Made by a program: the position numbers and the translations under genes. From NCBI GenBank assembly GCA_963790475.1, contig CAWBOS010000013.1, forward strand, positions 352,001 through 416,000: a stretch of 64,000 nucleotides of DNA, read 5' to 3'. Positions within the stretch are counted from its first letter, which is position 1, and each line of letters begins with the position of its first letter. Below are positions 2,529 to 32,581 of this stretch, one piece after another. Source of the DNA: an uncultured delta proteobacterium. GTDB taxonomy: Bacteria; Desulfobacterota; RBG-13-43-22. Under the pieces are notes generated by a model, which saw only the letters and a program-made list of their open reading frames with translations, searched no databases and was not told the DNA's origin.

Positions 2529-4313
2529 ATGGCTTTTCAAAATAAAGTCGGTTTTAAATTAATCCTTATCTATTTGTTTTCTCTGGTCCTGGCCCTGTCC
2601 GCTGTTATGGTGGTAGCCGAATCCATCATAACCCAACAGATCCATAGGCGGCACCAAAAGAGACTGGACGCCCTGACCGAGAAAATCTTTTTCAGTCTGG
2701 AAAAACAAAAGGACCAAATCCGGTTATTGGCCACGGCCATCGCCAATTTCGGACGAATGGGCCCATTGGTTGCCAAAGAAGACAAAAGGAATATTCGGAC
2801 TTTGGTCTATTCGGTTTTTCAAGAGTCCGACCTGGACGTTTTATTTGTCCTCGGGCAGCAGGGGAAAGAACTGGTTCAACTGGAATCGGATGATTTTCAC
2901 AAGTTGGAGCCGGAGGAAAGCCGTCAAATAAAGAAGGCTATTCTCGGATCCTACGGCGTCCGATTAAGCAAATGGGAACATGGGATTTTTGTCAGCGGCA
3001 GTTCCCCGATTTACAATGAACAAGAATTAACCGGCCGGGTCTATGCCGGGGTCTTGATCGACAACAGCTATCTGGATGAATTGGCTAAAGGGATGGACAC
3101 CTTTATGGCCATTGTCCGGGAAGGAAAGGTCATTGCCAGCACCTTCACTAAAAAAGGGGGGGAAGGTGATGAATTGGAATTTTCCGAGGATGTGCTTCAG
3201 GACATCAAGGCCATGATGGGTCAGTCTCTGCCGGTTGTGGTGGAAGAAAAATCTTATACTATGAAATCCCTGCCTTTGAGAGATCGGGGAGGTGACATCT
3301 CTGGTTTTTTGGTCATTGGCCTTTCGAGAGTGGAATTGAATCAAACGGTTAGTTCCCTGCGCCGGACTATCCTGGGGGTGGGGGGCGGAGGGGCTTTACT
3401 CGGAGTCCTTTTGATGATTTTCCTAAGCTCAAGAATGAGGCGGCAAATCGTCCTTCTTTCAGTAGGGACCGAGAGGGTTACCTCCGGGGATCTTAAAAAA
3501 CCAATCCCGGAAATCAGCAAAGATGAACTGGGTGTTCTGGCCCGCTCTTTTAACCAGATGGCTCAGACTCTGGAGGAACGGGACCAGGTCCTCCGGGAAG
3601 AGAAAGAAAAAATTCTGGCCAATGTGGACTTTCTTTCCATGATGGTCCATGATATCAAAGCCCCCATGGCCGGAGTCAGTTTGATGATTGAAACTTTATT
3701 GGAAGAAAATCTTTCTAAAGAAATCAAACAACGCCTGGCCGGAATGGGGGAAAGCATCGAAGAATTATTGGGTCATCTTTATAATGTATTGACCATCTCC
3801 AAGATTGAAAAAGGACCATTTACCCTTAAATTAGAACCGGTAGACCTCAATGCTTCTGTGGCCTATGTCAGTTTCCAGTGTCGGGTGATGGCTGACCGAA
3901 AGGGGATTCAGGTTCTGGAGGACCTGGCCCAGGACCTGCCGGCCTTGCAGGCCGATGAGTTTTACCTGGAACGGCTGATTTATAATCTCTTGATCAATGC
4001 TATCCATTGGACCCCCCGGGAAGGATGCATTACCATAAAGACAGAGTTCCGGCAGGAAGAAGGAAAAAGGACGATCACCTTGGAGGTGGCCGACAGTGGC
4101 CCGGGAATTTCTCCGGAACTAAAATCCGGTCTCTTTGAAAAATTCATTTCTCAACCGGAAAAAGGGGATTTAACCGGGACCCACTCCGGGTTGGGCTTGC
4201 ACATCTCCCAATCCATAATCCAGGCTCATGGCGGGACCCTGCGGGAGGAGGGAAAATCCGGGGAAGGGGCGCGATTTATCTGTATTTTCCCCATCAACGA
4301 AAGTGATGCATAG
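2529..4313 (+). CDS. Membrane sensor histidine kinase (periplasmic Cache-like, HAMP, HisKA, HATPase)
   Basis: Two TM segments, DELGVLARSFNQM HAMP, MVHDIKAP H-box, NLLINA N-box, DSGPGI and GLGL G-boxes. Confidence 0.93.
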   Translation: MAFQNKVGFKLILIYLFSLVLALSAVMVVAESIITQQIHRRHQKRLDALTEKIFFSLEKQKDQIRLLATAIANFGRMGPLVAKEDKRNIRTLVYSVFQESDLDVLFVLGQQGKELVQLESDDFHKLEPEESRQIKKAILGSYGVRLSKWEHGIFVSGSSPIYNEQELTGRVYAGVLIDNSYLDELAKGMDTFMAIVREGKVIASTFTKKGGEGDELEFSEDVLQDIKAMMGQSLPVVVEEKSYTMKSLPLRDRGGDISGFLVIGLSRVELNQTVSSLRRTILGVGGGGALLGVLLMIFLSSRMRRQIVLLSVGTERVTSGDLKKPIPEISKDELGVLARSFNQMAQTLEERDQVLREEKEKILANVDFLSMMVHDIKAPMAGVSLMIETLLEENLSKEIKQRLAGMGESIEELLGHLYNVLTISKIEKGPFTLKLEPVDLNASVAYVSFQCRVMADRKGIQVLEDLAQDLPALQADEFYLERLIYNLLINAIHWTPREGCITIKTEFRQEEGKRTITLEVADSGPGISPELKSGLFEKFISQPEKGDLTGTHSGLGLHISQSIIQAHGGTLREEGKSGEGARFICIFPINESDA

Positions 4314-5886: not shown

Positions 5887-8800
5887 ATGGCCTTTTTTCA
5901 AACCCTTCTTCTGGCTTTGCTGGTTTGGGTCCTGACTTTCCCCGTCGGACAGGGTGAACTTTCGGCTGCGTCCAACCCCAAAACCAAAACAACCAGGGAA
6001 ATGCCCGGAGTGGAAACCAAGGTCAAACAGGTGCCTGGCGATAGTCCTTTCAAGGTTCCTCTCTGGAAAATCCATTGGGAGAAGGCCCGTCAATCAGTCC
6101 TCCTGAAAAAATATCCGGAGGCCGTGCTGGATTTTCAAAAAGCCCTGGCTTTGAAACCGAATCTGGATGAGGCTCGGTTGGAGTTGGCCCAGGTTCTGGT
6201 TACCCAGGAGCGATGGGGAGAAGCGGTCACCGAGCTGGAGGCGGTTGCTGAGCACCAGCCGCTCAATCAGAAGGTCCAAAAAGATCTGGCCGATCTCCTG
6301 TCTCGAAAAAAGGAGTTTCGCCGGGCTATTGAACGGTACCAATGGCTTTTGCAGAGGGATCCGGATAATCTGCAGATCCGTTTATCTTTAGCCTCCGACT
6401 ACTTTCAAATTAATGAATTGGAAAAGGCTTTGATTGAATGGCGTCAGGTGCTTATTCGAGATCCCCAGCATGTTGAGGCCAGGACCCACCTGGCTGAAGT
6501 CTTAGCCGCTACTCGGCGGCTGGATGAATCCATCATTCTCCTGGAAGGCCTGGTTAAACAATTTCCCAAACAATCCAGTTTGAAGAAGAAGCTGGCCCAG
6601 GTCCTGATATCGGCCCAAAGAAATAAAGAGGCCCTGCCCTACCTTCAGGAACTGAATCGGCAAGAGCCGGGAGAACCGGAAATCCAATTGATGTTGGCCC
6701 AGGTCCTGTCTGCCGGAAAGCAATACGATCAGTCCCTGACCTATCTGGACGCTTATTTGAAGAAGAAACCGGACCAGAGCAGTGCCCTCATCGAAAAGGC
6801 CCGGGCTTTATTATTTACCGGAGATTATTCTCAGGCTTTGGAAATTTATGAAAGGCTCAGGAAAATAGAACCCAACAACGTAGATCTTCAACGGGAGATC
6901 GCTGAGGCCTATTTTTCATCCGGGAAAACCAAAGAGGCCCTTTCGGAATATCAAAAATTGGCAAAACAGTTTCCCAATGAATATCAACTCCACGAAAAAA
7001 TCGGAGAATTGTACCTTCAAAACAAAAATTACAGCCAGGCCGTTTCTCCTTTCCAAAAGGCCTTGTCCATCGAACCGGAAAACAGTGTTGCTCATTTGAA
7101 TTTGGCCAGGGCCTATAATTTTTCAGGGGAGAAAGAAAAGGCCCTGCCCCTTTACCGTGAACTCTTGTCCCGAAGAAATGATTGGAAAATACAGGTTGAA
7201 ATGGCCGATCTTTTGTTCGATATCCGGCAATTTCCTGAGGCCTTTTCAATTTTTCAACAGATATTGAAAGAACATCCGGAGCTTTGGGAAGTCCGTTTCA
7301 AATTAGCTACCGGTTTGTACCACCAGAAGGAATTCGACCTGGCGGCCCGAGAACTGGAAATCTTGATCCAGACAAAACCCGACAATGCCAGCATCTGGAT
7401 TTTGGCCGGTTATAATGCCCTGGATCAAGGAGATTATCCCCAAGCCCATAAGGCCTTCCAAAAAGTGCTGACTTTAGGAGAAGACCAGGGGAATACCCTG
7501 CTCAGACTGGGGGAGATCTCCCGATTGCAGGGTCGTCCCTGGAAGGGAATCAGCTATCTGGATTGGGCCCTGACCATTAAACCTGGCGACCAGGAAATCC
7601 TGATTGAAAAGGCCATGGCTCTGACAGACGGCGGAGGATGGTCCCTGGCTCGTAAAATCCTGGAACCTATGATCCAAAATAATCCTGATAGCTTTAAGGT
7701 TCAACGGGCCTGGACCTGGTTAATGGCCGCCCTGGACCGGAGAGATGAATGTGAGGCTGGCTGGGAAAAACTGGAGAGAAGTTTTCCCTTGGAACAAGAC
7801 CTGATATTTAAGGATCGGGCGGATTTCTATCTTCGAAAGAAAAAACCGGAGCTGGCCCTGACCGCCCTGAGAGCCGCCCAGATAAAAAACCCTAAAAATC
7901 TGGAAATTCAGAAAAGAATCGGACGGCTTTTGCTCCAAATGAGGCAGTGGGAAGAGGCCGAGATCTTTTATCAGAATCTGGAAAATAATAACATCCTGTT
8001 AAATGAGGTTTATCTGGCTCAAGCCCTACTCCTGATCCGCCGGGGGAAAAATGATCCAGCCAGGGAATACTTATGGAAGGCGTTGATAAAAGCCCCGGAT
8101 TCGGTGAGGGTCCGTTTCTGGTTATGGCGTGTTCTGAACCAGGGAGACATGGGGAGCGAAGAGCTGAAAAAAATTGAGGAAGTCCTGTTTAAATTTGCCC
8201 GATCACAGGAGGGCGGTATCCTGGAACTGGCAGAGGGTTATCAGGAGATCGGGGACTGGAAAAAGGCCTACGCCTCCTACCTCGAGCTGATCGAAAAAGG
8301 GGAGGAGGATGACGATGTCCTTTTGTCCGCCAACCGAATCTCGGATTTCCTTTTGGTCGCGGAGAAAGCAGAACCCCTTCAGGAGATGCTGGAAGATCTG
8401 CAAAAAAGATTTCCCCGAAACCAGGGGATCACTCGCCGGTTAATTGAGTATTACACCCGGGAAAAGGAATATGGACCGGCGGTAAAAGCCATTGATGCAT
8501 TGCTGAAGGTGGAAGATCCCCTTGATCCGGTATTGATGGTCCATAAGGCCCGTCTCCTGGAACGGTGGAATAAACATTCGGATTCCCAGACCACTTATCA
8601 AAAACTGCTGGACCCGCCTGTGGATTTGCTATTCCGGGAAAAGGTCAACGAACTTATTTTAAAGCAGGACAACGTCGATGATTCTTTTTTGAAGAAAATC
8701 ACAGGAACCGAGAAGACCGCTTTTGTTAATTCCTTTTATGAGGAAACCAAAAGGAAGATGGAGTTTCTTCCATTGGAGCCTAACTTGAAAGACAGGTTGA

Positions 8801-10221: not shown

Positions 10222-11763
10222 CTATGTGCTTTGTGCTTTGTGCTGCGATGGGCTGTAATATTTCTCAATCGACGCCACCAATCCCGGAATAGTGTATTCT
10301 TCAGCCACGATTTGAACGCTAAGCCCGTTGCTTGTGGCGGTTTGAGCCGTGATAGGGCCGATACAGGCCACAGTTATTTTTTTCAGTAAATAAAGTATTT
10401 CCTGTCTGGTAAACAGGGCCAAGAAATTAACCACCGTGGATGAACTGGTAAAGGTCAAGCAGTCGATCAGGCCTTGAGCCATTTTTTCTTCCAGTTGTTC
10501 TTTCCCTTCCAAGGCCGGTAAGGTTTGGTAAGCGGAGACGACCAGGACCTCGGCCCCCATTTGCCTCAGTCCTTCCGGCAAAATTTCCCGGGCCTGTTCC
10601 GCCCTGGGAATCAGGATCTTCTGGTTGGCCAACGGGATTTGGGACAAGGCTTCCAACAAGTGCTCGGCCTGAAATCTTTCCGGAATCAGGTCGGCTTTAA
10701 GATGATATTCGGACAGGGCCTGGGCCGTGGCCGGCCCGATGACCCCTATCTTTGTGCCCTTCAGAGATCGGAGATCCAGATGGAGATGGTCCATTCGGTC
10801 CATGAAAAAACGAACTCCGTTGGGGCTGGTAAAGAATATCCAATGATAGTCTTCTATCCGTTGAATGGCTTGATCCAATTTCGACCAGTTCGAGGGAGGG
10901 GCAATACGGATGGTGGGAAATTCCAGACATTCGGCCCCGAGGTCGTTAAGTCGATCAACCAGTTCACTGGCCTGTTCCCGGGTTCGGGTGACCACGATAG
11001 ATTTGCCGAAGAGGGGACGGCGTTCAAACCAGTTTAAGGTGTCCCGCAATTCAACCACCTTTCCGACGATAAATATCGCCGGTGGAGCCAAATCCGCTTC
11101 TTCGGCCTTTCCGGTTATCGTTTCCAAAGTTCCGGTTATGGTCTTTTGACGAGGGGTAGTTCCCCAACGGATAAGCGCCGCCGGGGTGTTTGGCTCCAGC
11201 CCGTCCTGAAAAAGACTTTCAACAATGGAAGGGAGATTTTTGACCCCCATTAAAAAAACCAGGGTGTCCGCTCGGGGGGATGGTTTTCCCGAACCCTGGG
11301 CCAAAACCTCTTTGGTAGGATCTTCATGCCCGGTAAAAAAGGCCACGCCGGTATTGTATCGGCGATGGGTTAAAGGGATCCCGGCATAAGCGGGTACGGC
11401 TATGGCCGAAGTGACCCCCGGAACAATTTCAAAAGGGATATTGGCTTTGGCCAGTTCTTCGGCCTCTTCTCCGCCCCGGCCGAAAATAAAGGGGTCCCCT
11501 CCTTTCAGGCGGACTACCCTTTTGCCGAGTAAGGCCTTATTGATGATCAATTGATTGATTTCATTTTGGGACAAGGTGTGGTCCCCCCCCTTTTTGCCCA
11601 CATAAATGATCTCGGCCTCCCCGGAAACATGCCGCAAGAGTTCCGGGCTGGCCAAAAAATCGTAGATGACCACTTCAGCCTTTTGGAGGAGTCGAACCCC
11701 TTTTAAAGTAATTAGTCCCGGGTCCCCGGGTCCGGCTCCGACTAAAAAAACTTTTCCGGTCAT
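10222..11763 (-). CDS. cobA: Bifunctional uroporphyrinogen-III C-methyltransferase / synthase (CobA-HemD)
   Basis: VGAGPGDPGLIT, RLKGGDPFIFGRGGEE; HemD half FTSPNGV, FTSSSTV, CIGPITA. Confidence 0.96.
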   Translation of the reverse strand: MTGKVFLVGAGPGDPGLITLKGVRLLQKAEVVIYDFLASPELLRHVSGEAEIIYVGKKGGDHTLSQNEINQLIINKALLGKRVVRLKGGDPFIFGRGGEEAEELAKANIPFEIVPGVTSAIAVPAYAGIPLTHRRYNTGVAFFTGHEDPTKEVLAQGSGKPSPRADTLVFLMGVKNLPSIVESLFQDGLEPNTPAALIRWGTTPRQKTITGTLETITGKAEEADLAPPAIFIVGKVVELRDTLNWFERRPLFGKSIVVTRTREQASELVDRLNDLGAECLEFPTIRIAPPSNWSKLDQAIQRIEDYHWIFFTSPNGVRFFMDRMDHLHLDLRSLKGTKIGVIGPATAQALSEYHLKADLIPERFQAEHLLEALSQIPLANQKILIPRAEQAREILPEGLRQMGAEVLVVSAYQTLPALEGKEQLEEKMAQGLIDCLTFTSSSTVVNFLALFTRQEILYLLKKITVACIGPITAQTATSNGLSVQIVAEEYTIPGLVASIEKYYSPSQHKAQST

Positions 11764-21335: not shown

Positions 21336-22154
21336 ATGTTCCATTATTGGACAGCGGTAATATTGGGTCTGGTAGAAGGGCTGACTGAATTTCTTCCTGT
21401 TTCCTCAACCGGTCATTTGATTCTGGCCGGTCATCTCCTCTCCTTTAAGGGAAGAATAGCCGACACCTTTGATATCGTCATTCAACTCGGGGCCATACTG
21501 GCCGTTGTCATTCTCTATCGTCAGAGATTCCTCGGCCTCTTGCCCAAAAAAGGGTGGATGAATTGGTCCTCAAAAAGCGCCGGTTTCAGCGGGTTTCAGG
21601 GTTGTCTTTTGTTGGGGTTGACCACCCTTCCGGCCCTCATTTTGGGAAAATTCGCCTACGCTTATATCAAGGGCTATCTTTTTAATCCCACCAGTGTCGC
21701 CATAGCCCTGGCGGTGGGGGCCTTTGGCATCCTGGCCGTTGAAAGTTGGCGGCCTAAAACAAAAGCCGATTCCTTGGATGCTATCCGTTGGCCTCAAGCC
21801 CTTTTTATCGGGCTCTTTCAGTGCCTTTCCATGTGGCCGGGAATATCCAGGGCCGGGGCGACCATTATCGGCGGGCTTCTTAATGGATTGGATCGGAAAA
21901 CCGCCGCCGAATATTCCTTTCTGGCCGCCGTTCCGGTCATGATGGCTGCCACAGGATATGATTTGTATAAAACGAGGGGACAATTCCAGGAGGGAGATAT
22001 TCTTTTTTTAGGAATCGGTTTCGTAGTCTCTTTTATCGTGGCCTATTTCACCGTCGCTGTTTTTATTCGACTCCTGGGCCGCTGGACCTTAAAACCTTTT
22101 GCCTGGTATCGTATCGCCCTGGCCCCGGTGGTTCTCCTGTTCTGGCCTGATTAA
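21336..22154 (+). CDS. uppP: Undecaprenyl-diphosphate phosphatase
   Basis: GLVEGLTEFLPVSSTGH, IQLGAILAV, PGISRAGATI, AEYSFL. Confidence 0.97.
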   Translation: MFHYWTAVILGLVEGLTEFLPVSSTGHLILAGHLLSFKGRIADTFDIVIQLGAILAVVILYRQRFLGLLPKKGWMNWSSKSAGFSGFQGCLLLGLTTLPALILGKFAYAYIKGYLFNPTSVAIALAVGAFGILAVESWRPKTKADSLDAIRWPQALFIGLFQCLSMWPGISRAGATIIGGLLNGLDRKTAAEYSFLAAVPVMMAATGYDLYKTRGQFQEGDILFLGIGFVVSFIVAYFTVAVFIRLLGRWTLKPFAWYRIALAPVVLLFWPD

Positions 22155-23431
22155 AGAACCACTTGACAAGCCTCAGCATCGGAGTCCTTCAGCCTGGCCG
22201 ACATTTCTTTTAAGATGGTGAGGACAATGCTGGGATTTTCCCGAAGCAGTATTTCAAAATTATCCTGGGAGATGCAAACCAGCCGGGTATCCGGTTCAAC
22301 GACTGTTATCGTAACCGTCCGAGGGACATCCAGGAGCATGGCTATCTCTCCAAAATAGTCGCCCTCTGTTATAACCCTTAGCACTTTCCCCTCTTTGTGA
22401 ATGGCCGCGGCCCCGGAGAGGATGTAATACATTTCCTGCCCGATCTCGCCTTCTTTAAAAACAACTTCCCCGTTTTCAAAGACCTTAACAAACTTATTGG
22501 GAATTTTCCGGCCTGCCTTTTGGTTAAAGAAGAGGCCTCTAAAAACAAGGGCCTCCTTTCGTTTCATATTGGCCATAATCTCGGCCCCCGCCAACATCAC
22601 GGCAAAAGAATAATAGACCCAGATCACCAATAAAAAAACCATTTTCAAAGATCCAAAGGCAAACCCGTAATTGGGGTTGACCTGGAGGACCAGGGAAAAG
22701 GCGGGCCGGATCAGGGACCAAAGAGCGACGGTTGTTAATGAACCGATCAGGAGCTGAGACCATTTTACTTTTACCGGGACAAAAAAAATGAAAAAAAGGA
22801 AGAGAGAGATTAAGGCAATAAAAAAGGGGGCCAGGAGATAGCTGATATCCAGAAACGTTGGTAAATCGATCAATAAAGTGTCGACATAGAGCGAATAAAG
22901 GAATTCGCCTGATACCAAAAGAATAAACATGACCAAAATGATCAGGACCCCCAGGCCGTCCCATAATTTGGCTTTAAAATAAGAAAATTCCCGTTCAAAT
23001 CTGAAAATTTTGGAAAATGCGGTTCTACAGGCCCTGGCAAAGGGGGTAATCAATCCGATAAGGGTCAGGAGGGTAAAGACTTCCCATAAGGCCCTGTGCC
23101 TGGCTATCGTCGCTACCTCTTTGATAATGACCTTATTGATTTCCGGAAATTGCCTTGGGAAAAGTCGTTCAATTTCCTCCAGGGCCTTTTGAGAAGAAAC
23201 CAGGTAACTCGCCAGGGGATAGATGGTCAGCAAAAGCAAAGGGATCAGGGCAAAAAAACTGTAAAATGACAGGGTGGCCGCCATTTCAAAATTATTGTTT
23301 TTTTGAAAAGAGTTAACTGTCTCCTTTAAAACCAAAACAAAATTATTGAATTTTTCTCGGGCGACGGAAAACATATTGAGATTCTTCACCATCCCGTTTA
23401 AGGAATAGGGAGCGGATTCATTCCTGAGCAA
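22151..23431 (-). CDS. YihY/BrkB family inner membrane protein fused to cyclic nucleotide-binding domain
   Basis: AATLSFYSFFALIP, YGFAFGSL, GAEI; C-terminal FKEGEIG, GDYFGEIAML, PRTVT; exact start uncertain. Confidence 0.85.
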   Translation of the reverse strand: MLRNESAPYSLNGMVKNLNMFSVAREKFNNFVLVLKETVNSFQKNNNFEMAATLSFYSFFALIPLLLLTIYPLASYLVSSQKALEEIERLFPRQFPEINKVIIKEVATIARHRALWEVFTLLTLIGLITPFARACRTAFSKIFRFEREFSYFKAKLWDGLGVLIILVMFILLVSGEFLYSLYVDTLLIDLPTFLDISYLLAPFFIALISLFLFFIFFVPVKVKWSQLLIGSLTTVALWSLIRPAFSLVLQVNPNYGFAFGSLKMVFLLVIWVYYSFAVMLAGAEIMANMKRKEALVFRGLFFNQKAGRKIPNKFVKVFENGEVVFKEGEIGQEMYYILSGAAAIHKEGKVLRVITEGDYFGEIAMLLDVPRTVTITVVEPDTRLVCISQDNFEILLRENPSIVLTILKEMSARLKDSDAEACQVVL

Positions 23432-23472
23432 TCTCTTCCGGCATCTTCTTGGTCAATCCAAAATCATAATTC

Positions 23473-24948
23473 CTATTTCCGATAAAGAGCAAACCGGTCA
23501 TATTCCAGCTTGAGCCAATCAGGCCAGAATTCCCGATCAATGGGATAACTGGCATCCAGGGCTTGAAAGGATCCGTCGCCGGCCACTTTTCGGATGCGCT
23601 CCTGGGTATTATATTTCACTTCATCCACCCCGATTAGTTTGGCCACAGCCCGGTTGATCTCTTCCAGCGTTTTGTCGTAAGGATTATCGCCTCGAAAGGC
23701 CCTCTGCACGGCCAGCTCGTTCAAACATTCCGGTCCGCGATGCCATTCCTTGAAAGAAGGAAAAAACATCGGGCCGTAAGAAACCCAGAATTCGATCGTT
23801 TTGGCCCCGGCATTATAAGTGACCCAGACCGACCCGCCTTCACTGACGCTGCCTCTTACGATACTGTCATCCCCCATGGCCACATTTTTGTTGCGTAGCA
23901 GAGATTCGACCCCCCCAAACTTAAGTCCTACCTCTTTGGTGCGGGTCAGGATCTCCCCTTCCTGGAAGGTCCGGACCGCCTGAGGAAGTTTGATCAGGGC
24001 CGGAAAAAGGTTTATTTTCAGACCTTCGGCAATTCCCACGGAAACCCCCCATCCCGATTCCGGATTGGGAATGACTACATCCGCCAGCGAGTTTTTGTAG
24101 CGGTCCACCAATTCCAAACCCAGTTCCCGGCGAAGTTGAAATATTTCTTTTCCCCTGAATTGCGACCCCACACTGCCGAAATAGACCCCCTGAAAAATAT
24201 CCGGCATCAGGGGTTCCTCCCGTAATCGTTTGGTTTCGCATCCCTTGGAAGAACAAAGGGTCATTTCCGCGCCGTCGTATTCTTTTTCGGTGATCCCTTC
24301 CAGCCGTCGGTGGGAACAGGATTCCGAACTGGTCGCAAAAGTGCTCCCGATACTGGCATAGCAAAAAGGCTCGAAGGCCTTGGCATCATTTAAGGCGACC
24401 AGATGGGTTTCCTTTCCGTCATGGACCAGGGCGGTCAGGGCGAAGGTAGCCCGGCCGAACAATTTATCAATCAGCCTTCGTCCGGCTTCAAAGGTAATCC
24501 CGCTTTGGGTAAGGTATTTATGCAGAAAGGCCCCCACAATTTCAGTCTTGTTGTCGGTTTGAAGGACATAATCGTTTTCCAGTTCGGCCTTCAAGTCATC
24601 GTCTTTAATCAGGTATCCATCCATGGTCAGAACGACCGTAAGCCCGGCTTCTTGACGGGGAAAGATTTCTATCGGTTCGGCATTTGTTTTCTCAGCCATT
24701 TTTCTTTTGGTATACCCGATATTGCCGATGGCCGCCATCGGTTCCAAATCTTGAAAGTTCCTGATCACGTTATAATCGATCACCTCGGCGATTCGGCCCA
24801 GGCCTTTATGGATGTAAATCCCTTTTTTAGTCCCTACCGCCAGGCCGGTACTGGCCTTGCCCCGGTGCTGGCAGGCCCCGGTAGCCAAAAAGGTTTTATT
24901 GACCAACTCCGGATCGCCCGGTCCGTAAATACCGACAATACCGTCCAA
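23473..24948 (-). CDS. Amidophosphoribosyltransferase (PurF)-like protein lacking glutaminase catalytic residues
   Basis: MDGIVG, QHRG, IPNPESG, GDDSIVRGS PRPP loop; aggagg RBS + TTG start. Confidence 0.82.
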   Translation of the reverse strand: MDGIVGIYGPGDPELVNKTFLATGACQHRGKASTGLAVGTKKGIYIHKGLGRIAEVIDYNVIRNFQDLEPMAAIGNIGYTKRKMAEKTNAEPIEIFPRQEAGLTVVLTMDGYLIKDDDLKAELENDYVLQTDNKTEIVGAFLHKYLTQSGITFEAGRRLIDKLFGRATFALTALVHDGKETHLVALNDAKAFEPFCYASIGSTFATSSESCSHRRLEGITEKEYDGAEMTLCSSKGCETKRLREEPLMPDIFQGVYFGSVGSQFRGKEIFQLRRELGLELVDRYKNSLADVVIPNPESGWGVSVGIAEGLKINLFPALIKLPQAVRTFQEGEILTRTKEVGLKFGGVESLLRNKNVAMGDDSIVRGSVSEGGSVWVTYNAGAKTIEFWVSYGPMFFPSFKEWHRGPECLNELAVQRAFRGDNPYDKTLEEINRAVAKLIGVDEVKYNTQERIRKVAGDGSFQALDASYPIDREFWPDWLKLEYDRFALYRK

Positions 24949-25096
24949 TGTAATCCTCCTTTGTCAAAATCACTTCAAGATTCGGATGAGAATATATTGA
25001 TAACCTTCGATCAGGACGACTTCTAAGCCGCCCGGTAATTGATCATTGACGGTTAAATAACCGAAGTAAACAATTCCCCAAGATTTCTTCAGGTCC

Positions 25097-26257
25097 TCAA
25101 AACGGCGGGTGAACGGTCATAAAAGTCAATACCTCCATGCCGTTGCTTTCTGCTTTAGTTTTTCCTCCGTTGATCACCCGAATCATCAAATCCATCATCT
25201 CGGCCTGTAATTGATCTAAAGGCCGGCCTTCCACCAGGCTCCCGGCGTTGATATCCATATCCTCTTTCATGGCCTCGTAGATCCTGGTATTACTGGCCAC
25301 CTTGATCACCGGCAGGGCCGGAAATCCGACCGGGGTCCCCCGACCGGTGGAAAAAAACATCAGTTGGGCACCGCTGGCCGCCAGGCCGGCCATGGAATCT
25401 CCGTCATACCCTGGGCCATCCTGCAGGATGAGCCCGTGTTCGGTAGGAATCTCACCGTAATCCACAACCTGGTTGATGGTGGTAGTGCCGCCTTTAACAA
25501 TACAGCCCATGGATTTTTCGGCGATGGTGCTCATCCCTCCGTCCATATTGCCCGGAGAGATAACCAAACCGGCCAGATCTCCCATGACTTCATGGGTTAT
25601 TCTTTCAGCCCGGCCAACCATTTCTTCGATCTGTTTGGCTACCCGAGCGTCCTTAGCCCTCCTGGCCAGGACGTGAGCGGTCCCGATCATCTCAGTATTT
25701 TCTCCGAAAATCACCGTGGCCCCCTTGGCCACCAGCCGGTCCGCGACCGCGCCCAGGGCCACATTGGCCGTCACGCCGGACATGGCATCCGAACCGCCGC
25801 ATTCCATGGCCACCAGCAGTTGATCCCAGGGCAAAGCAACCCTCGGTTGACCGTTGATCTCCGATAATATCCGGCGGACGGCATCAGCCCCTTTCCTGGC
25901 GGTGGAGAGAGAGCCTCCATCCTCCTGCACGTTAAATACGGCGAAGGGTTTCCCGGTTTCATTAATCAGGGGAAGCAGACTCTTGGTATTGGAAACCTCA
26001 CAGCCCAACCCGATCAAAACCACCCCGCCCACATTGGGATGCCGCATAAGGCCGGCAAGGATCCGGAATAAAATTTCCATATCCCTCCGTCCTCCCCGGC
26101 CGCATCCATGGGAGTGGGTGGCACAGACGGCCTCCGGCACTTCCCGGGCAATTCGGTTGACCACCCCGTTGACGCAGGAAACGGCAGGCAAAACCAGTAC
26201 ATGATTTCGGATGCCGAATCTTCCGTCTTTTCTTTCGTATCCTGTGATTTCCATCAT
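25097..26257 (-). CDS. UxaA/SuyB family dehydratase/lyase large subunit
   Basis: GYERKDGRFGIRNHV, HSHGCG, HPNVGG, GLGCE, ECGGSD, FSTGRG. Confidence 0.92.
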   Translation of the reverse strand: MMEITGYERKDGRFGIRNHVLVLPAVSCVNGVVNRIAREVPEAVCATHSHGCGRGGRRDMEILFRILAGLMRHPNVGGVVLIGLGCEVSNTKSLLPLINETGKPFAVFNVQEDGGSLSTARKGADAVRRILSEINGQPRVALPWDQLLVAMECGGSDAMSGVTANVALGAVADRLVAKGATVIFGENTEMIGTAHVLARRAKDARVAKQIEEMVGRAERITHEVMGDLAGLVISPGNMDGGMSTIAEKSMGCIVKGGTTTINQVVDYGEIPTEHGLILQDGPGYDGDSMAGLAASGAQLMFFSTGRGTPVGFPALPVIKVASNTRIYEAMKEDMDINAGSLVEGRPLDQLQAEMMDLMIRVINGGKTKAESNGMEVLTFMTVHPPF

Positions 26258-26526
26258 CGCTTCCACCGCTTGCTTTCCAGATTATGGGTATGAACCCATT
26301 CTCCCTTTTTGATATTGCGGATGCTGACCGCCACCGTTTCTCCGTACTTGATGATTTCCTCTTCTTCAGAAATATCGCGGAGGGCGATTTTGTGACTGAC
26401 CGGTATCCCTTCCAAAGCGGTGAATCGATCTATCCCTCGGGCCGCCACCTGCTCTCCGGCCCCTATCCTCCTCAAGGCCACAGCCACATTATCCCGGGGA
26501 TGAATAATGAGAATATTTTCCTCCAT
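26254..26526 (-). CDS. UxaA/SuyA family SAF-domain small subunit
   Basis: IHPRDNVAVAL, HKIAL, IIKYG, GEWVHTHN. Confidence 0.92.
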   Translation of the reverse strand: MEENILIIHPRDNVAVALRRIGAGEQVAARGIDRFTALEGIPVSHKIALRDISEEEEIIKYGETVAVSIRNIKKGEWVHTHNLESKRWKR

Positions 26527-26747
26527 CCTTTTCTCCTTTTTGGCGAAATGCCCCTTCGAATAATTTCATTGAATCCTAACATAGAACGATTAACCATACC
26601 AATTTTTTCTTTAAACTCGAGCCGATGAGCGGGGCATGATGTTTCTTAATAATACCTTGAGAAATTGAAGGATCATTTCGGGTATTCTTCTTGACAAATT
26701 ATAAGCTTATGTTATCCAATGGGCCGATTGCCAGGAAGGTATCGTTC

Positions 26748-27551
26748 ATGAATACAGGTAGAATTATAAAACCACCAGCTTATAAGACAGTCTTCGATAG
26801 GTATCAATCCGAATCCATACAAAACCTGCGGAAGGCATTTATTGAGATCATCACCCGTTTTGATGTCCCTTACGCGGAGAATATTTTAAAAACCAACGAT
26901 TGGCTCAATTATTGTTATTATTGCAGTCTGGTTCATTGCTTTAAGCCCGAGCCGTCGGCCTTGATCATCGATTGGGGCGGTCTCTACGGGCATATCACCA
27001 TGATACTCCAGACCATGGGGTATCGGAACGTATTTAATTACCTACTGCATCAGACACCTCATTATTCACTCTTTGAAGAAACGTTGGGGATTCCCACATT
27101 GTGGGGACAGGATCCGAACCGGCTTAACCTGGACAGCAATTCGGTGGATGTGTTCATTTCTTCCGGCGTTCTGGAGCATGTCCGTGAGGATGGAAAAGGA
27201 GAGGAGGAAACGATCCTACGGGAAATCCATCGAGTCTTAAAGACAGATGGTCTCTTTTTTATTTGGAACCTGCCCGCCAAACTGGGCACCTCCGAACTGT
27301 TGGCCATAACCACCGGCAAGTGGCATCACCAATATCGATATTGGAGAAAGGATATCATTCGACTTCTTCGAGAAGCAAAATTCGAACTCTTATATCTGGA
27401 CAAACATAAATTCTTCCCCGGTTCGGTTATGACCTTCCTCGAAAAAAGAATGGATCCCATCCGCTTGTTGAAGTGGGACAACCGTCTTTCCCACCTGCCT
27501 CCCTTTAATCTATTGGCCCGGGATTTCGTCCTGGTAGCACGGAAAACATAA
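26748..27551 (+). CDS. Class I SAM-dependent methyltransferase
   Basis: IIDWGGLYG, SVDVFISSGVLEHV, EIHRVLKTDG. Confidence 0.85.
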   Translation: MNTGRIIKPPAYKTVFDRYQSESIQNLRKAFIEIITRFDVPYAENILKTNDWLNYCYYCSLVHCFKPEPSALIIDWGGLYGHITMILQTMGYRNVFNYLLHQTPHYSLFEETLGIPTLWGQDPNRLNLDSNSVDVFISSGVLEHVREDGKGEEETILREIHRVLKTDGLFFIWNLPAKLGTSELLAITTGKWHHQYRYWRKDIIRLLREAKFELLYLDKHKFFPGSVMTFLEKRMDPIRLLKWDNRLSHLPPFNLLARDFVLVARKT

Positions 27552-27704: not shown

Positions 27705-28409
27705 CTAAAGCCCCAGGTACGTCTGACGGATATGATCATCCTGCAACAGCTCATGGGCCGGACCGTGCTTAATGATTTCCCCGTTTTCGAGAATGTAAGC
27801 CCTTTGCGCCATGTGCAGGGCATAATGGATGTTCTGTTCTATCAAAAGGATCGTAGTGCCTTCCTGATTGATTTGGGAAATGATACTGAAGATACTGCGG
27901 ACTAAAAGGGGAGACAGGCCCAGGGAGGGTTCGTCCAACATCAGGATCATGGGCCTGGACATCAATCCCCGACCGATGGCCAGCATTTGCTGTTCTCCGC
28001 CGGACAAGGTGCCGGCGCTCTGATTTTTCCTTTCCTCCAGCCGGGGGAAAAGCCCAAAAATTTTTTTCATGTTTTCTTTTCTATCTTTTCGGGCTTTGGG
28101 ATTCAAAGCCCCCAATTCCAAATTTTCCAAAACCGACATGGAAGGAAAGAGCTGCCGGCCTTCGGGGATCTGGATAATCCCGGCCTCGACGATAGCCGAG
28201 GTAGAAATGTTGCTGATGGGTCGGTTGAACCAGGTGATCAACCCTTTCCGGGCACGCAGCATGCCGGAAATGGTCTTGATGATCGTTGATTTTCCGGCCC
28301 CGTTGGAACCGATGATGGTGACGATTTCCCCTTCCTCCACTTTGAGGGAAACCCCCCGCAGGGCCTGAAGGTCTCCGTAAAAAACGTCCAGATTTTCTAC
28401 ATTAAGCAA
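27705..28409 (-). CDS. livF: Branched-chain amino acid-type ABC transporter ATPase (LivF-like)
   Basis: GSNGAGKS, PEGRQLF, LSGGEQQM, LDEPSLGL. Confidence 0.93.
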   Translation of the reverse strand: MLNVENLDVFYGDLQALRGVSLKVEEGEIVTIIGSNGAGKSTIIKTISGMLRARKGLITWFNRPISNISTSAIVEAGIIQIPEGRQLFPSMSVLENLELGALNPKARKDRKENMKKIFGLFPRLEERKNQSAGTLSGGEQQMLAIGRGLMSRPMILMLDEPSLGLSPLLVRSIFSIISQINQEGTTILLIEQNIHYALHMAQRAYILENGEIIKHGPAHELLQDDHIRQTYLGL

Positions 28410-29154
28410 CTTTAAAATCCTCTCCCAGGTAGGCCTCTATAACCTGAGGATTTTGGGTGACCTCTTCCGGCAGACCTTCGGCGATCATTTCCCCGAAGTT
28501 GAGGACCGCAATCCGGTGGGACAGGGCCATAACTCCGCGCATGACGTGCTCGATCAGCAGGATGGTCACGCCCTTCCGGTTGACCTCTCGAATCAGTCTG
28601 ATCAAGGCGTCGGTTTCTGTGGGATTGATGCCGGCCATGACCTCATCGAGCATCAAAAGCGTGGGGCCTGTGGCCAAAGCCCTGGCCAGTTCCAGGCGTT
28701 TCCGGTGAGGAAGGGTCAATTCGTTGGCCGATGCCGACCGCTTTTGATCCAGACCGACAAATTCAATGACCTCTTCGGCTTTTCTCTTCGCCTCGGTTAA
28801 AGAAGAGGAACGATTATAAGCGGCTACGATCACATTATCTATAACCGTCAACTCCAGGAAGGGCTTGACGATTTGAAAAGTCCGGACCATCCCCAGACTA
28901 CATATCTGGTGAGGTTTCAGGCCCAGAATCGATTTTCCCTGAAAATAGATCTGTCCGCTGTCCAGGCGGATAAAACCGGTCAGGACATTGAACAGGGTCG
29001 TCTTACCCGCCCCGTTTGGCCCGATGATAGCTACGATTTCCCCGGAATTGACCTGCATGGAAATAGTATGCAGGGCCCGAAGGCCTCCGAAATTTTTCCC
29101 CACTTTTTCTATGGATAACAGGTTCACCAAGGTTCCTTGCTTTAATAAGACCAC
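28402..29154 (-). CDS. livG: Branched-chain amino acid-type ABC transporter ATPase (LivG-like)
   Basis: GPNGAGKT, RTFQ, LDEVMAG, IEHVM, VIEAYLG. Confidence 0.93.
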   Translation of the reverse strand: MVLLKQGTLVNLLSIEKVGKNFGGLRALHTISMQVNSGEIVAIIGPNGAGKTTLFNVLTGFIRLDSGQIYFQGKSILGLKPHQICSLGMVRTFQIVKPFLELTVIDNVIVAAYNRSSSLTEAKRKAEEVIEFVGLDQKRSASANELTLPHRKRLELARALATGPTLLMLDEVMAGINPTETDALIRLIREVNRKGVTILLIEHVMRGVMALSHRIAVLNFGEMIAEGLPEEVTQNPQVIEAYLGEDFKVA

Positions 29155-29233
29155 TTCATACCGTTTTTGGGTTATTAGTGACTGGCCATGGGGAAACCAG
29201 TAATAGCGTAATCTCTTGCCTCTTGCCTCTTGC

Positions 29234-30244
29234 CTATCGCCCCTTGCCTGTTTTCACCCCTCGGTCTTTTTCCCCCGGTGATGAATTTCTAATAAATATC
29301 GGTCTAAATACACGGTTCAAATAAGGCATGACCCCCCTGGGGAAAAAAAAGACAGCAAAGATCAGAACAAAGCCATAAATGACCATATGCAGGCCCGGAC
29401 GTCCCACTTCGGAAAGGTAGGCTCTGGTCCATTCCGCCGGCAGGGTGATCAGGAAGGAGCCGACAATGGGTCCCAATACCGTGCCCATGCCTCCGATAAT
29501 AGGGCGCAGGATAATCTCAATGGACATCCCCATACTCATAAGCCGGTCCGGGCTCAAATGAAAAATCCGGTTGGCATCGAAGGTCCCGCCCAGGGCAGTC
29601 ATAAATGAACTCAAGCCAATGGCCCACATCTTGTATCTAAAGGTATTAACTCCCAGGCTTTCGGCGGCATCCTCATCTTCCCGAATGGCCATCAGATAGC
29701 GGCCGACTTTGGAAACTTCAAAGACCCGGACCACAACCACTGAAAACAGGAGCAAACCCAAGGCGATATAATAGTAGGGGAGATTCCCTTTGAATTGCAT
29801 GTTCCAAAAGCCCGGTCTAAAATCGAGAAACAGACCCATGAAGGAACCCAGACTGTCCATGTGTAAGGCTATCAACCGTCCGATCTCGGCAAAAGAGATG
29901 GTGATCAAGACAAAATACACCCCCCGCAAACCGAAACGAAATCCCAGAAAGCCGATGAACAGGCCCACGGCCATGGCCAGCAGGGCCCCGATGAACATAC
30001 CGGCCCAGGGGGACAAACCGAAAACAATGGCCAGTCGGGTGGAGGTATAGGCCCCGATCCCCACATACAGGGCGTGGCCGAGGGAGATATTGCCGGTATA
30101 GCCGGTCAGGATATTCCAGCATTGGCCCAGGTAGGCATAGTAAAAGATAAGAATAAAGATTTCCAGCCAGTAGTTATTGAGCACCTGGGGCAGGAAGAGC
30201 AGCACGGCCAGGATTATACTCAGAAAAACATACAGACGATTCAT
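29234..30244 (-). CDS. livM: ABC transporter permease (LivM-like)
   Basis: GYTGNISLGHA, AIREDEDAAESLGV, GGMGTVLGP. Confidence 0.92.
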   Translation of the reverse strand: MNRLYVFLSIILAVLLFLPQVLNNYWLEIFILIFYYAYLGQCWNILTGYTGNISLGHALYVGIGAYTSTRLAIVFGLSPWAGMFIGALLAMAVGLFIGFLGFRFGLRGVYFVLITISFAEIGRLIALHMDSLGSFMGLFLDFRPGFWNMQFKGNLPYYYIALGLLLFSVVVVRVFEVSKVGRYLMAIREDEDAAESLGVNTFRYKMWAIGLSSFMTALGGTFDANRIFHLSPDRLMSMGMSIEIILRPIIGGMGTVLGPIVGSFLITLPAEWTRAYLSEVGRPGLHMVIYGFVLIFAVFFFPRGVMPYLNRVFRPIFIRNSSPGEKDRGVKTGKGR

Positions 30245-31110
30245 CCTTTGCCACCGAAAAGCCCCTGGGGCCGGAAGAGCAGGATAATAATCATGATGGT
30301 AAAACTGACTACCTGCTTCATGGAACTGGGCAAAAAGACCGTACCCAAAGATTCGGCCACCCCGATAATCAATCCCCCCACCAGGGCACCGAACAAGCTC
30401 CCCATACCGCCCAGGATGACGATTACAAAAGAGATCAGGGTGTAAGGGGCACCCATAGTGGCCTTGGCCGGCATTAAGGGCACCAGCAGAGCCCCGGCGG
30501 CCCCCACGCAGGCCGCTCCTATCCCAAAACAGAAACCATAAACGCGGTTAATATGGGCGCCAACGATCAGGGCCCCGAACCGATTGTCGGCTGTGGCCCG
30601 TATAGTCTTTCCCATTGAGGTCTTTCTCAAAAAAAGGATGACCAACAAGGTAATCAGAATGGCCAAAACAAAGGCGATGAGACGGGGGACATCTACGGTT
30701 AAGGCCCCAAAACGGATCGAGGAGAGGGCCAGGCTGGTCTTGGGACTGATATCACTCCCGCCCCAGATCATCAGAGTGCTGTTTTCGAAGATGATGCCCA
30801 TGCCGACCAGAACCAGGACTTGCATGGCCTCAGGCATGTCCAGAATCCGGTTGACGAAAATCCTTTGAACCCCGTAACCGATCCCGAACATGACGGCTGC
30901 GGTTATCGGCAGGGAGAGATAGGGATCAAGGCCCAGGGAAAGCAGAAAGGTGATCGTCAAAAACATGGCAAAGACCATCATCTCCCCGTGGGCAAAATTG
31001 ATAATCCGCATGACGCCGAAAATCAGGGATAGGCCTAAGGCAATCAACCCATAGACCCCTCCCATCAAAAATCCCTGCAAGGCTAATTGAAGAACCAGGT
31101 CAGTATTCAT
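30241..31110 (-). CDS. livH: ABC transporter permease (LivH-like)
   Basis: GLSLIFGVMRIINFAHG, LGGMGS, RPQGLFG. Confidence 0.93.
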   Translation of the reverse strand: MNTDLVLQLALQGFLMGGVYGLIALGLSLIFGVMRIINFAHGEMMVFAMFLTITFLLSLGLDPYLSLPITAAVMFGIGYGVQRIFVNRILDMPEAMQVLVLVGMGIIFENSTLMIWGGSDISPKTSLALSSIRFGALTVDVPRLIAFVLAILITLLVILFLRKTSMGKTIRATADNRFGALIVGAHINRVYGFCFGIGAACVGAAGALLVPLMPAKATMGAPYTLISFVIVILGGMGSLFGALVGGLIIGVAESLGTVFLPSSMKQVVSFTIMIIILLFRPQGLFGGKG

Positions 31111-31289: not shown

Positions 31290-32581
31290 TTACGCTCCCC
31301 GTTCCCAAAGCTGCTTCCAGGGGAAAACATAAGGGGCCTGGGCAAATTCTTTGGGCAGGACCACCTTGACCCTATCATCCACTTTCGGGTCCGGGAGAAC
31401 TTGAACCATGGCCGTTGTGGCATTGATATTATCTCCCTTATCATCAAAAATGATCGGCCCGCCGACCATGGGGTGGTCTTTAAGATTCGTTTTTCGTAAG
31501 GCTGCACGCAGCGACATTGGGGTCGGTCGATCTGGCTCGTTCCAGGGCATCGGCGATGACCTGGACCCCCACGTAACCCCAACCTGAATTAGTATCGACA
31601 TACTGGCCGGGATACTTCTTTTCATAACGTTTGTTCACATCTTTATATTTCGGGCTTTTGGGATTGACCCAGGGCACATTATCCAGGACATAATAGGCCA
31701 GCTTGTCCAGATCCTTGATATTATCCGGCTCGTACCATCCCGGGCTCCCGGGACTGATGATCCCCATCAGCCGCACCCGCTGTTTGTAAAGCTCCCGAAG
31801 CATCAATTTGGCATCCCCCGTCCGGGTCACCGGGAAAAGGACATCCGGTTTGGCATCCTTAATCTTGGCCACCTCGGCGGAGAGGTCTTGGACCCCCAGG
31901 GGATATTCCAGGTGTTCAATGATCTCGAAGGGCCATTTTTTGTCTTTGACCAATTTGACAAAAGCCGCTCCCTGAGTGCGTCCAAAAGCATCGCCGACAT
32001 TGGAAACTACGATTCTTTTAATATTAACCTTCTTTTCCCTGATAATCTGATCCATGAATTTTCCCATACTAACCATAAATAGCTCCGTTTTGGGAAAACA
32101 ACGAAAAACGTTTTTATACCCCTTGGCCGTGATGGCGTCCAGGGCCGCCACATCAATAACAAAAGGGATATTTCGTTGTTCGGCCAAAGTAGCGATGGCC
32201 ATGGCCGGACCGCTTAAAAAAGGCCCTACCAGACATACAGCCCCTTCGTTAATCAGTCCTCTCGGCCGCGGACCTGGCTATTTCTTCTTTGGCCTCGTGA
32301 TCTCCCAATAACAATTTTAGCCTGGCCCCGCCCATGGATTTGATTCCACCGCGGGCGTTGATGTCATCAACGGCCATCTTATTCATGCGCTGCATGGCGA
32401 TCCCAATGTCAGGAATAGGACCGGTAACCGGCTGGATGGAACCGATGATGATTTCTTTGGGCGCGGCCCCGCGTAAGATAGCCGGAAAGCCGGTCAGGGT
32501 AGCGGCCGCCCCGATGGCGGCCGAGGTTTTAATAAAATTTCTCCGACTGATTCCTGTTCCCTCCACTTTTTCCTTTTCCAT
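31290..32581 (-). pseudogene. Tat-exported LivK-like substrate-binding protein with two +1 frameshifts (about 32258 and 31512); possibly sequencing error
   Basis: SRRNFIK twin-arginine signal; three consecutive ORF pieces join into one SBP. Confidence 0.82.

Follow-up and report, generated by a model that had tools for sequence, protein, structure and literature searches.

One gene in the 64,000-nucleotide stretch of an uncultured delta proteobacterium considered here (Desulfobacterota; contig CAWBOS010000013.1 of assembly GCA_963790475.1, positions 352,001 to 416,000; 'the window' below means that whole stretch) encodes a relative of the amidophosphoribosyltransferase PurF in which the former glutamine site, as read from alignments, has been remodelled into an invariant set of charged residues and has not decayed. 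PurF is a textbook N-terminal nucleophile (Ntn) amidotransferase whose ammonia channel forms only with both substrates bound. The protein at issue has Asp in the place of the catalytic Cys, hence 'Asp-type', and its phosphoribosyltransferase (PRTase) half, which in PurF acts on phosphoribosyl pyrophosphate (PRPP), is preserved. We read it, tentatively, as an ammonia-dependent PRPP aminotransferase, a member of the PurF family that would work independently of glutamine. The gene had been picked out in an earlier note, made from the sequence alone, as an intact PurF paralogue with a 'dismantled' glutaminase site and as a 'candidate new phosphoribosyltransferase'; neither phrase fits quite as it stood. 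The gene, its parts and its signals are these:

23473..24948, minus strand: coding sequence of the Asp-type PurF paralogue, 491 amino acids, TTG start, TAG/TAA-terminated (open reading frame list and translation)
24955..24960, minus strand: Shine-Dalgarno sequence AGGAGG, 6 nt before the TTG (read in the sequence)
24964..24966, minus strand: in-frame TGA, 18 nt upstream of the start (read in the sequence)
24244..24948, minus strand: N-terminal Ntn-amidotransferase-like domain, residues 1-235 (alignment to Bacillus subtilis PurF, 1ao0, and class-specific invariant positions)
23473..24243, minus strand: PRTase domain and family-specific C-terminal region, residues 236-491 and stop (conserved PRPP and flexible loops)
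24943..24945, minus strand: codon for Asp2, in the place of the catalytic Cys1 of PurF (Asp in 80/80 aligned sequences and 120/120 database clusters)
24619..24621, minus strand: codon for Asp110, in the place of the oxyanion-hole Asn101 (a change common to the whole Cys-less clade described below)
23863..23871, minus strand: codons for Asp360-Asp361-Ser362, the PRPP-binding acidic pair of type I PRTases (translation, alignments and column counts)

Could a Cys nevertheless be concealed at the N-terminus? Between the upstream TGA and the TTG start codon (24948-24946, minus strand) lie five codons containing neither a start codon nor a Cys codon, and with the TGA so close no N-terminal extension carrying a Cys is possible; a Cys revealed through an earlier start or a propeptide is ruled out on the same ground. 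The product begins Met-Asp-Gly-Ile-Val-Gly and, given the usual specificity of methionine aminopeptidase, Met1 stays when the next residue is Asp. The strong ribosome binding site and full-length frame of 491 codons opening MDGIVG that had been described earlier are thus confirmed (AGGAGG, TTG), with the strand, for which no assignment had been given, being minus. Start codons among the 80 family genes are ATG in 75, GTG in 3 and TTG in 2, and a Shine-Dalgarno-like motif is present at -16 to -4 in 69 of them.

The substitutions listed next come from a HMMER alignment to 1ao0 together with column counts by class (135 canonical sequences, 82 of a related 'Ser-type' and 80 Asp-type). Numbering follows the Escherichia coli enzyme, whose glutamine-site residues are Arg73, Asn101-Gly102 and Asp127. 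On each line the E. coli residue is followed by that of the Asp-type protein:

Cys1 to Asp2
Gln28 to Lys31
His71 to Asn76
Arg73 to Gly78 (GNIGY)
Thr76 to Lys81
Gln preceding a conserved Pro to Glu91
Asn101 to Asp110 (MDG)
Asp127 to Lys134 (NKTE)

The Asp-type residues of these lines together constitute the remodelled glutamine site. From the set Arg73, Asn101-Gly102 and Asp127 the Gly alone has been kept (Gly111), and the change at Asn101 is absolute, Asp occupying its place in 100% of Asp-type and Ser-type sequences and Asn in 100% of the 135 canonical representatives. The substitutions that had been read by eye (DGIVG, GNIGY, MDG and NKTE) were each recovered by the alignment and the column statistics. 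To judge by these residues, glutamine hydrolysis by the known mechanism would be impossible for the Asp-type protein, since it has no N-terminal nucleophile and the carboxylate- and amino-binding residues and the oxyanion Asn have all been replaced. The term 'dismantled' is misleading for all that, as invariant charged residues stand where the glutamine-handling ones did. A companion claim, loss of the Fe-S ligands, holds for at least two of them by column count (now Asp250 and Ser398); at the two C-terminal Cys positions, GSFQALDASYP in the window's protein against FCLACF.G.YP in the canonical copy, it is a reading by eye only.

The PRTase half is a different matter, and here its preservation, as earlier asserted, is evident in two ways. 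The motifs IPNPESG, RTF and GDDSIVRGS are present in the translation, and the PRPP-loop pattern of type I PRTases, V-A-M-G-D360-D361-S-I-V-R-G-S, is conserved with canonical PurF. An alignment of 46 sequences, canonical, Ser-type and Asp-type proteins among them, shows no variation at R29, G30, G111, S208, E209, Y256, R273, R326, K343 and D361 and at least 90% conservation at K320, T327, F328, R336, D360, S362, I363 and G366, so that the PRPP loop and the flexible loop match an active PurF. Tyr79, the counterpart of Tyr74 in E. coli, has been retained as well. Two changes in this half are common to the Asp-type and Ser-type proteins, Ile to Gln329 directly after R-T-F, beside the acceptor site, and Thr to Val368 in the 5-phosphate loop. 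A family-specific C-terminal segment at about 401-426 has invariant residues of its own, W402, R404, C408 and Y424.

On profile scores the protein stands well apart from canonical PurF, scoring 123 bits to the NCBIfam purF equivalog TIGR01134, where the cut-off is 350 and canonical copies in relatives reach 503-540 bits. Pfam recognises just one domain in it, that of class II amidotransferases, marginally through GATase_7 (PF13537; 27.9 bits, cut-off 25), with GATase_6 (PF13522) at 19.3 bits against a cut-off of 27 and PF00156 giving no match at E <= 0.1. The protein starts Met-Asp-Gly in place of the N-terminal Cys nucleophile of canonical PurF and of class II Ntn enzymes. The closest solved relative by HMMER is B. 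subtilis PurF 1ao0 (E 6.4e-28, residues 3-399), and the AlphaFold model made from the 46-sequence alignment is confident, with a mean predicted local distance difference test score (pLDDT) of 93.4 and a predicted template modelling (TM) score of 0.91; only residues 321-340, the PRTase flexible loop, are lower (pLDDT 69-70). Foldseek puts 1ao0_A first (E 3.3e-33, TM 0.80/0.86), with E. coli and Arabidopsis PurF next, PurF structures overall at TM 0.77-0.86 and E 1e-27 to 3e-33, and GlmS far behind; a search of the ESM Atlas gave PurF-like clusters only. The protein is thus predicted to have the two-domain fold of canonical PurF, an Ntn domain followed by a type I PRTase. It resembles B. subtilis-type PurF (1ao0/1gph; EC 2.4.2.14) in that fold, in its PRPP and flexible-loop residues, in length class and in a gene that often stands downstream of a carB. 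It differs in being only 24-27% identical, in having no equivalents of Cys1, Arg73, Asn101 and Asp127, in its replaced Fe-S ligands and in its C-terminal segment.

A search for homologues gave 740 proteins at E <= 1e-5, many more than chance would yield, the best 120 clusters of which are 78-100% identical and full length and carry either the label 'hypothetical protein' (NCBI; metagenome-assembled genomes, MAGs, of Thermodesulfobacteriota/Deltaproteobacteria) or 'amidophosphoribosyltransferase' (JGI). A scan of species-representative genomes took in 133 relatives, of which 80 loci were kept; one of these (L079) is without a family open reading frame, and the other 79 with the window form the family alignment of 80 sequences. 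The reading frame is unbroken in all 80, and a start of the form x-Asp-Gly is found in 80/80 of them and in 120/120 of the database clusters. At 67-100% identity, 123 of the 491 columns are invariant, among them Asp2, Arg29-Gly30, Asp110-Gly111, Asn133, Thr135-Glu136 and Asp360-Asp361-Ser362, and the N-terminal domain has 20% of its columns invariant. Nei-Gojobori ratios of non-synonymous to synonymous change (dN/dS) for 10 pairs are 0.057-0.086 overall, 0.05-0.11 for the N-domain in nine of the pairs (the tenth has a saturated dS) and 0.04-0.09 for the C-terminal part, by which measure selection holds the former glutaminase domain no less tightly than the PRTase domain.

That the gene is a decaying or neutrally evolving duplicate, or an artefact of annotation or sequencing, would accord with the loss of all glutaminase residues and Fe-S ligands and with a sporadic spread (7/301 genomes of the phylum, 3/9 of the genus). 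It is ruled out by the invariance of Asp2, the 123 invariant columns and the low dN/dS, and it sits ill with a frame intact in 80/80, dN/dS of 0.06-0.09 in both domains and a confident fold; we regard it as so improbable that it can be set aside. Purifying selection on an intact paralogue, which the earlier note had wished to see tested, is found to be strong. The same note had named observations that would count against its claim, and these were looked at: there is no Cys at the N-terminus, the homologues all have Asp, and the literature searched contained no characterisation of the family.

The family has cousins. Among 1.84 billion representatives searched with phmmer there were 2456 proteins at E <= 0.001 and only 30 at E <= 1e-30. 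Divergent cousins of Asp type are at 36-56% identity (one has Lys at position 2), and others at about 30% start Met-Ser-Gly, Met-Ala-Gly, Met-Pro-Gly or Met-Gly-Gly. Across 235 aligned representatives, a sample enriched in Ser-type by a second search and so giving no frequencies, positions 1, 73 and 101 co-vary strictly, as Cys/Arg/Asn in canonical proteins and as Ser/Leu/Asp or Asp/Gly/Asp in the others. A maximum likelihood tree of 81 rows was built by a quick method with support from the Shimodaira-Hasegawa-like approximate likelihood ratio test (SH-aLRT) only; it took in all non-canonical non-Ser proteins, random draws of 28 of 135 canonical and 24 of 82 Ser-type ones, 10 Asp-type loci and 2 canonical Desulfobacterota sequences. 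Canonical PurF is split from all Cys-less proteins with an SH-aLRT of 100, and inside the Cys-less side the Asp-type proteins are one group (SH-aLRT 99) next to Ser-type. The Cys-less clade has Ser, Ala, Gly, Pro or Asp at position 2, in every case with Asn101 changed to Asp. The window's protein is accordingly one subfamily of a much larger clade, which reduces the novelty that had been claimed for it.

Ser-type, the sister group, shares with Asp-type the changes Asn101 to Asp, Ile to Gln329 and Thr to Val368 and a Gly-Arg insertion at 165-166. It differs in keeping the Fe-S cysteines and His71 and in having Ser at position 2 and Leu in the place of Arg73; Ser-type proteins are 27-31% identical to the window's protein. 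They come from Aenigmatarchaeota, Nanoarchaeia, Pacearchaeota, an 'archaeon' and Omnitrophica, that is from DPANN archaea and Omnitrophica, and are all 'hypothetical'; the records of the Ala/Pro/Gly/Leu branch hold no organism names. A search for Ser-type in the phylum of one holder labelled Woesearchaeota matched 2 of 121 genomes, both with canonical Cys-PurF, a result with no bearing on purine synthesis in Ser-type holders.

A protein of this general kind has been described before. According to the 2011 paper of Brown et al. (Biol Direct 6:63, PMC3261824), every crenarchaeon studied has a second PurF-like protein, PurF', lacking the N-terminal Cys, which is often Ala or Val instead, with its gene near purF and other purine genes. 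Those authors judged it 'unlikely to be a functional amidotransferase' and suggested that it is an ammonia-dependent PRPP aminotransferase, and they cite E. coli PurF Cys1 mutants that have lost glutamine-dependent and kept ammonia-dependent activity. PurF' and Asp-type are alike in being PurF homologues without the N-terminal Cys beside a canonical PurF (for Asp-type, in 40 of 50 holders), and unlike in that PurF' has Ala or Val, is archaeal and is encoded among purine genes, whereas Asp-type has invariant Asp, is from Thermodesulfobacteriota and is not among pur genes. The likeness is one of published description. 'Candidate new phosphoribosyltransferase' thus overstates novelty, in that the ammonia hypothesis was put forward for PurF' in 2011 (PMC3261824). 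The literature searched contained no paper in which a Cys-less PurF homologue had been studied biochemically.

Of 301 genomes sampled evenly across the phylum, 7 have the Asp-type gene at E <= 1e-60, and it occurs in 3 of the 9 genomes of the window's own genus; it is a sporadic extra copy. The window's genome (G000) has a canonical Bacillus-type purF on contig C12, after carA and carB, whose product shows ECGIFG..., GHVRY, HNG, SMDSE and the Fe-S cysteines, and the Asp-type protein is 27% identical to a canonical PurF of the same genus. In the five other holders looked at first, a canonical purF was present each time (520-539 bits). A search covering the genomes of the first 50 of the 80 loci found one over the cut-off in 40, so to the earlier question of a canonical purF elsewhere the answer is that it is present, in the window's genome and in 40 of 50 other holders. 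The 10 without a match over the cut-off are all MAGs of unknown completeness; five of them, all split into many contigs, were examined, of which one is without purD, another carries part of a purF cut off where its contig stops, and the remaining three have purD. Replacement of canonical purF by the Asp-type gene is not supported by these 10.

Three Asp-type genes, at 70-80% identity, are in MAGs labelled Anaerolineales, Nanoarchaeota and Woesearchaeota (L039, L109 and L111), and may reflect mis-binned Desulfobacterota contigs or gene transfer; in neither of the archaeal-labelled MAGs does a canonical purF score above the cut-off, and purD is present in one of them.

The canonical operon of the window's own genome has an oddity. 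On contig C12 (L114, 6347-12247) carA, carB (at two sites) and purF are each interrupted, making four lesions in about 6 kb. Both carB sites and the purF site have a single extra base relative to close relatives, which at the carB 3' and purF sites stands directly before TAA and brings it into frame, while the carA break is seen solely as an in-frame TGA and a split open reading frame. Contigs of relatives from three public runs, mostly 90-99% alike and not the same strain, are without the extra base (2 at 7699, 1 at 10588 and 3 at 11560-11563, L114 coordinates), as is the same-genus genome G105 at the carB 3' and purF sites. The dN/dS of the two purF pieces against G105, 0.09 and 0.23, means that any inactivation is recent or that the lesions are an assembly artefact. 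A crude measure of gene splitting across the genome showed no rise and did not set G000 apart from the baseline loci. If the lesions are true, phosphoribosylamine supply in this organism would rest on the Asp-type protein. Two other frames in the assembly have a comparable look. A 240-amino-acid open reading frame in the window (31480-32202, minus), following a branched-chain amino-acid ABC transporter operon (27705-31110), matches positions 84-301 only of the 343-position Peripla_BP_6 profile and is possibly another truncated or frameshifted gene. On contig C14 of G000 (2796-3425) the N-terminal 215 positions of the purF model are matched in an open frame of 227 amino acids, the counterparts of which in relatives, probably glmS, have open frames of 609-636 amino acids; it may be one more interrupted gene.

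In the window the Asp-type gene is flanked at 148 nt upstream by a split SAF and GD_AH dehydratase (26526-25097, minus), and at 41 nt downstream by a YihY/BrkB-cNMP-binding membrane protein gene (23431-22151, minus), followed by BacA, an NAD-epimerase, a response regulator and a HAD hydrolase on the other strand. The same-genus locus L017/L036 shares BacA onward without the two immediate neighbours, from which we take the Asp-type gene in the window to be its own unit. As to these two neighbours themselves, the UxaA-type dehydratase (25097-26526) is split so that a 90-amino-acid SAF open reading frame overlaps one of 389 amino acids with the GD_AH second and C-terminal domains, the membrane protein (22151-23431) is a YihY/BrkB domain fused to a C-terminal cyclic-nucleotide-binding domain, and neither is at the syntenic locus of the same-genus genome G031.

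That no pur genes are adjacent, as had been noted, is correct for the window, and it extends to the conserved neighbour clusters of the 79 loci, where none was found. The only recurrent nucleotide-pathway neighbour, counting the window and the 79 loci, is carB. It is immediately upstream on the same strand and encodes a CarB of 1066 amino acids with the full set of carbamoyl phosphate synthetase (CPSase) domains. Among the 55 loci whose upstream sequence extends for 3.3 kb or more it is there in 32, at gaps of 5 to 510 nt (<=21 nt in 15 of the 32), and, when copies cut by contig ends are counted, in 40 of the 80 rows; nine rows have no upstream information, which makes it 40 of 71 informative loci. 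The other neighbours are lineage-specific: on the downstream side a methyltransferase with a radical-SAM gene (clusters in 11 loci), and elsewhere amtB-glnK-glnD beside the carB and purF-like pair in 4 loci (cluster members in 4-5), a glutamate-synthase-domain gene in 5 and rubrerythrin in 4.

The linked carB is of a second type (carB2), 51-54% identical to the carB1 that follows carA and precedes canonical purF; carA occurs once per genome, adjoining carB1. Thermodesulfobacteriota have these two types generally (for instance L018, 498-3698), that of carA-carB-purF and the second, 51-56% identical and with no carA beside it, and several genomes are listed with a single carB match, of the second type. 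Seen from the side of the PurF-like gene the carB linkage is real, and both co-transcription with a nucleotide-pathway gene and, equally, inheritance would fit it. A 'glutamine-free module' of carB2 and the PurF-like gene was entertained and is weakened by the commonness of carB2 and by 10 non-holder genomes, in none of which purF or an Asp-type gene lies downstream of carB2.

In the window from 22000 to 27000 only chance-level Rfam matches appeared at E <= 1, and in 8 of the 79 loci no riboswitch or other Rfam element reached the gathering score upstream. Nine of 11 positions of the sigma-54 consensus, with its GG/GC, were found in only 3 of 80 upstream regions, and a scan for sigma-70 promoters and terminators yielded nothing over shuffled expectation.

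How might such a protein work? The reading we lean towards, tentatively, is that it still catalyses attack on C1 of PRPP by a very small nucleophile, free ammonia being the likeliest, to give 5-phosphoribosylamine. Two things make ammonia the simplest candidate: Tyr79, Arg326, Thr327 and Phe328 on the acceptor side have not changed, and activity with ammonia is already a side reaction of E. coli PurF. The invariant charged network of Asp2, Asp110 and Glu91 with Lys31, Lys81 and Lys134 would fill the former glutamine pocket. It might lock the N-domain in the 'glutamine-bound' conformation, so allowing the PRTase loop to close; or the carboxylates of Asp2 and Asp110, at the old mouth of the ammonia channel, might capture NH4+ and hand on NH3. 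Either way the phosphoribosylamine used for purines and thiamine would have an accessory source in this protein, in addition to the canonical PurF with its Fe-S cluster and its dependence on glutamine, and frequent co-transcription with carB would bring about joint expression of the entry steps of pyrimidine/arginine and purine synthesis. The predicted fold, the glutaminase residues replaced in every member, the kept PRTase residues, the purifying selection on both domains, the precedents of the E. coli Cys1 mutants and of PurF', the carB context and the amtB-glnK-glnD and glutamate-synthase-domain neighbours support this proposal.

A good deal weighs against it. With a canonical purF in 40 of the 50 holders nothing requires the Asp-type protein for phosphoribosylamine, and among those 50 there is no genome where it clearly replaces PurF. 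The window and its closest relatives (L034/G105 and L036/G031) have no carB and no conserved operon; carB2 is in at least 103 of 301 genomes (at >=72% identity) as against 7 of 301 for the Asp-type gene; and canonical purF likewise follows carB1 in these genomes, so that the carB linkage may be inherited ancestral carB-purF synteny rather than functional coupling. Ile335 of E. coli PurF, which lines the ammonia channel, is Gln329 in Asp-type and Ser-type, and together with Val368 this could mean a different acceptor or altered chemistry. Finally, the invariance of Asp2, where sister subfamilies have Ser, Ala, Gly, Pro, Leu or Lys, would fit a structural role as well as it fits ammonium binding.

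Two other accounts of the protein draw on much of the same evidence, and together with an ammonia-dependent aminase they correspond to the three functions proposed at the outset; all are still candidates and computation singles out none of them decisively. One is that it is a pseudoenzyme, a non-catalytic regulator or sensor that binds PRPP and/or purine nucleotides and exerts its effect by touching other proteins; it might, for example, join canonical PurF in mixed oligomers or modulate the CarB encoded beside it. It is what might be expected of a protein encoded almost always by an extra copy beside canonical purF (40/50; 5/5), whose nucleophile is lost and whose position 2 varies freely between Cys-less subfamilies; identity of 67-100% across the families of the phylum, surface-forming sequence included, is as for a protein with partners, and carB adjoins in 40 of the 71 informative loci. 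That the catalytic residues of the PRPP site are kept too, the flexible-loop Arg/Lys and the acidic pair, and not just the binding ones, tells the other way, as do the solitary position of the gene in the window and its nearest relatives and the failure to find a dedicated partner gene or, in a weak search, fused (longer) forms of the protein; on balance we think this rather unlikely.

The other account retains catalysis and changes the substrate: a PRPP-dependent transferase for another small amine or acceptor, with the rebuilt N-domain pocket as the site that binds or delivers it, hence a distinct enzyme family with a new product. Reversed-charge and invariant replacements in that pocket (Asp127 to Lys134, Arg73 to Gly78, Thr76 to Lys81, Gln to Lys31, Gln to Glu91, Cys1 to Asp2) invite it, as do the clade-wide Gln329 and Val368 that adjoin the acceptor site, the split from canonical PurF (SH-aLRT 100) and the Ser-type branch of 'hypothetical' proteins in DPANN archaea and Omnitrophica. 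The unchanged Tyr79, Arg326, Thr327 and Phe328 are an obstacle, leaving room, going by the E. coli structure, for a very small nucleophile only. No conserved neighbour genes point to a new pathway, nor is there a riboswitch or known RNA element upstream in the window or the 8 loci, and we consider it unlikely. It would be no less of a surprise, by our estimate, if the whole Cys-less clade were a separate, widespread PRPP-dependent family whose pocket binds a different ligand, Asp-type making or sensing a metabolite outside known pathways. Such weight as is left over goes to something not thought of.

Whichever of these holds, a natural and selected family has kept the PRTase half and the channel-forming fold while swapping every glutamine-handling residue for an invariant charged set, and it is thereby a ready test of how the two domains are coupled and of whether a protein with no glutaminase can capture and channel free ammonia. 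The mixed annotation, 'amidophosphoribosyltransferase' in one place and 'hypothetical' in another, may mis-credit or mis-deny purine synthesis in MAGs of sulfate reducers and DPANN archaea. The crenarchaeal PurF' question of 2011 appears still unanswered in the literature searched, and to it the Asp-type family brings hundreds of bacterial sequences.

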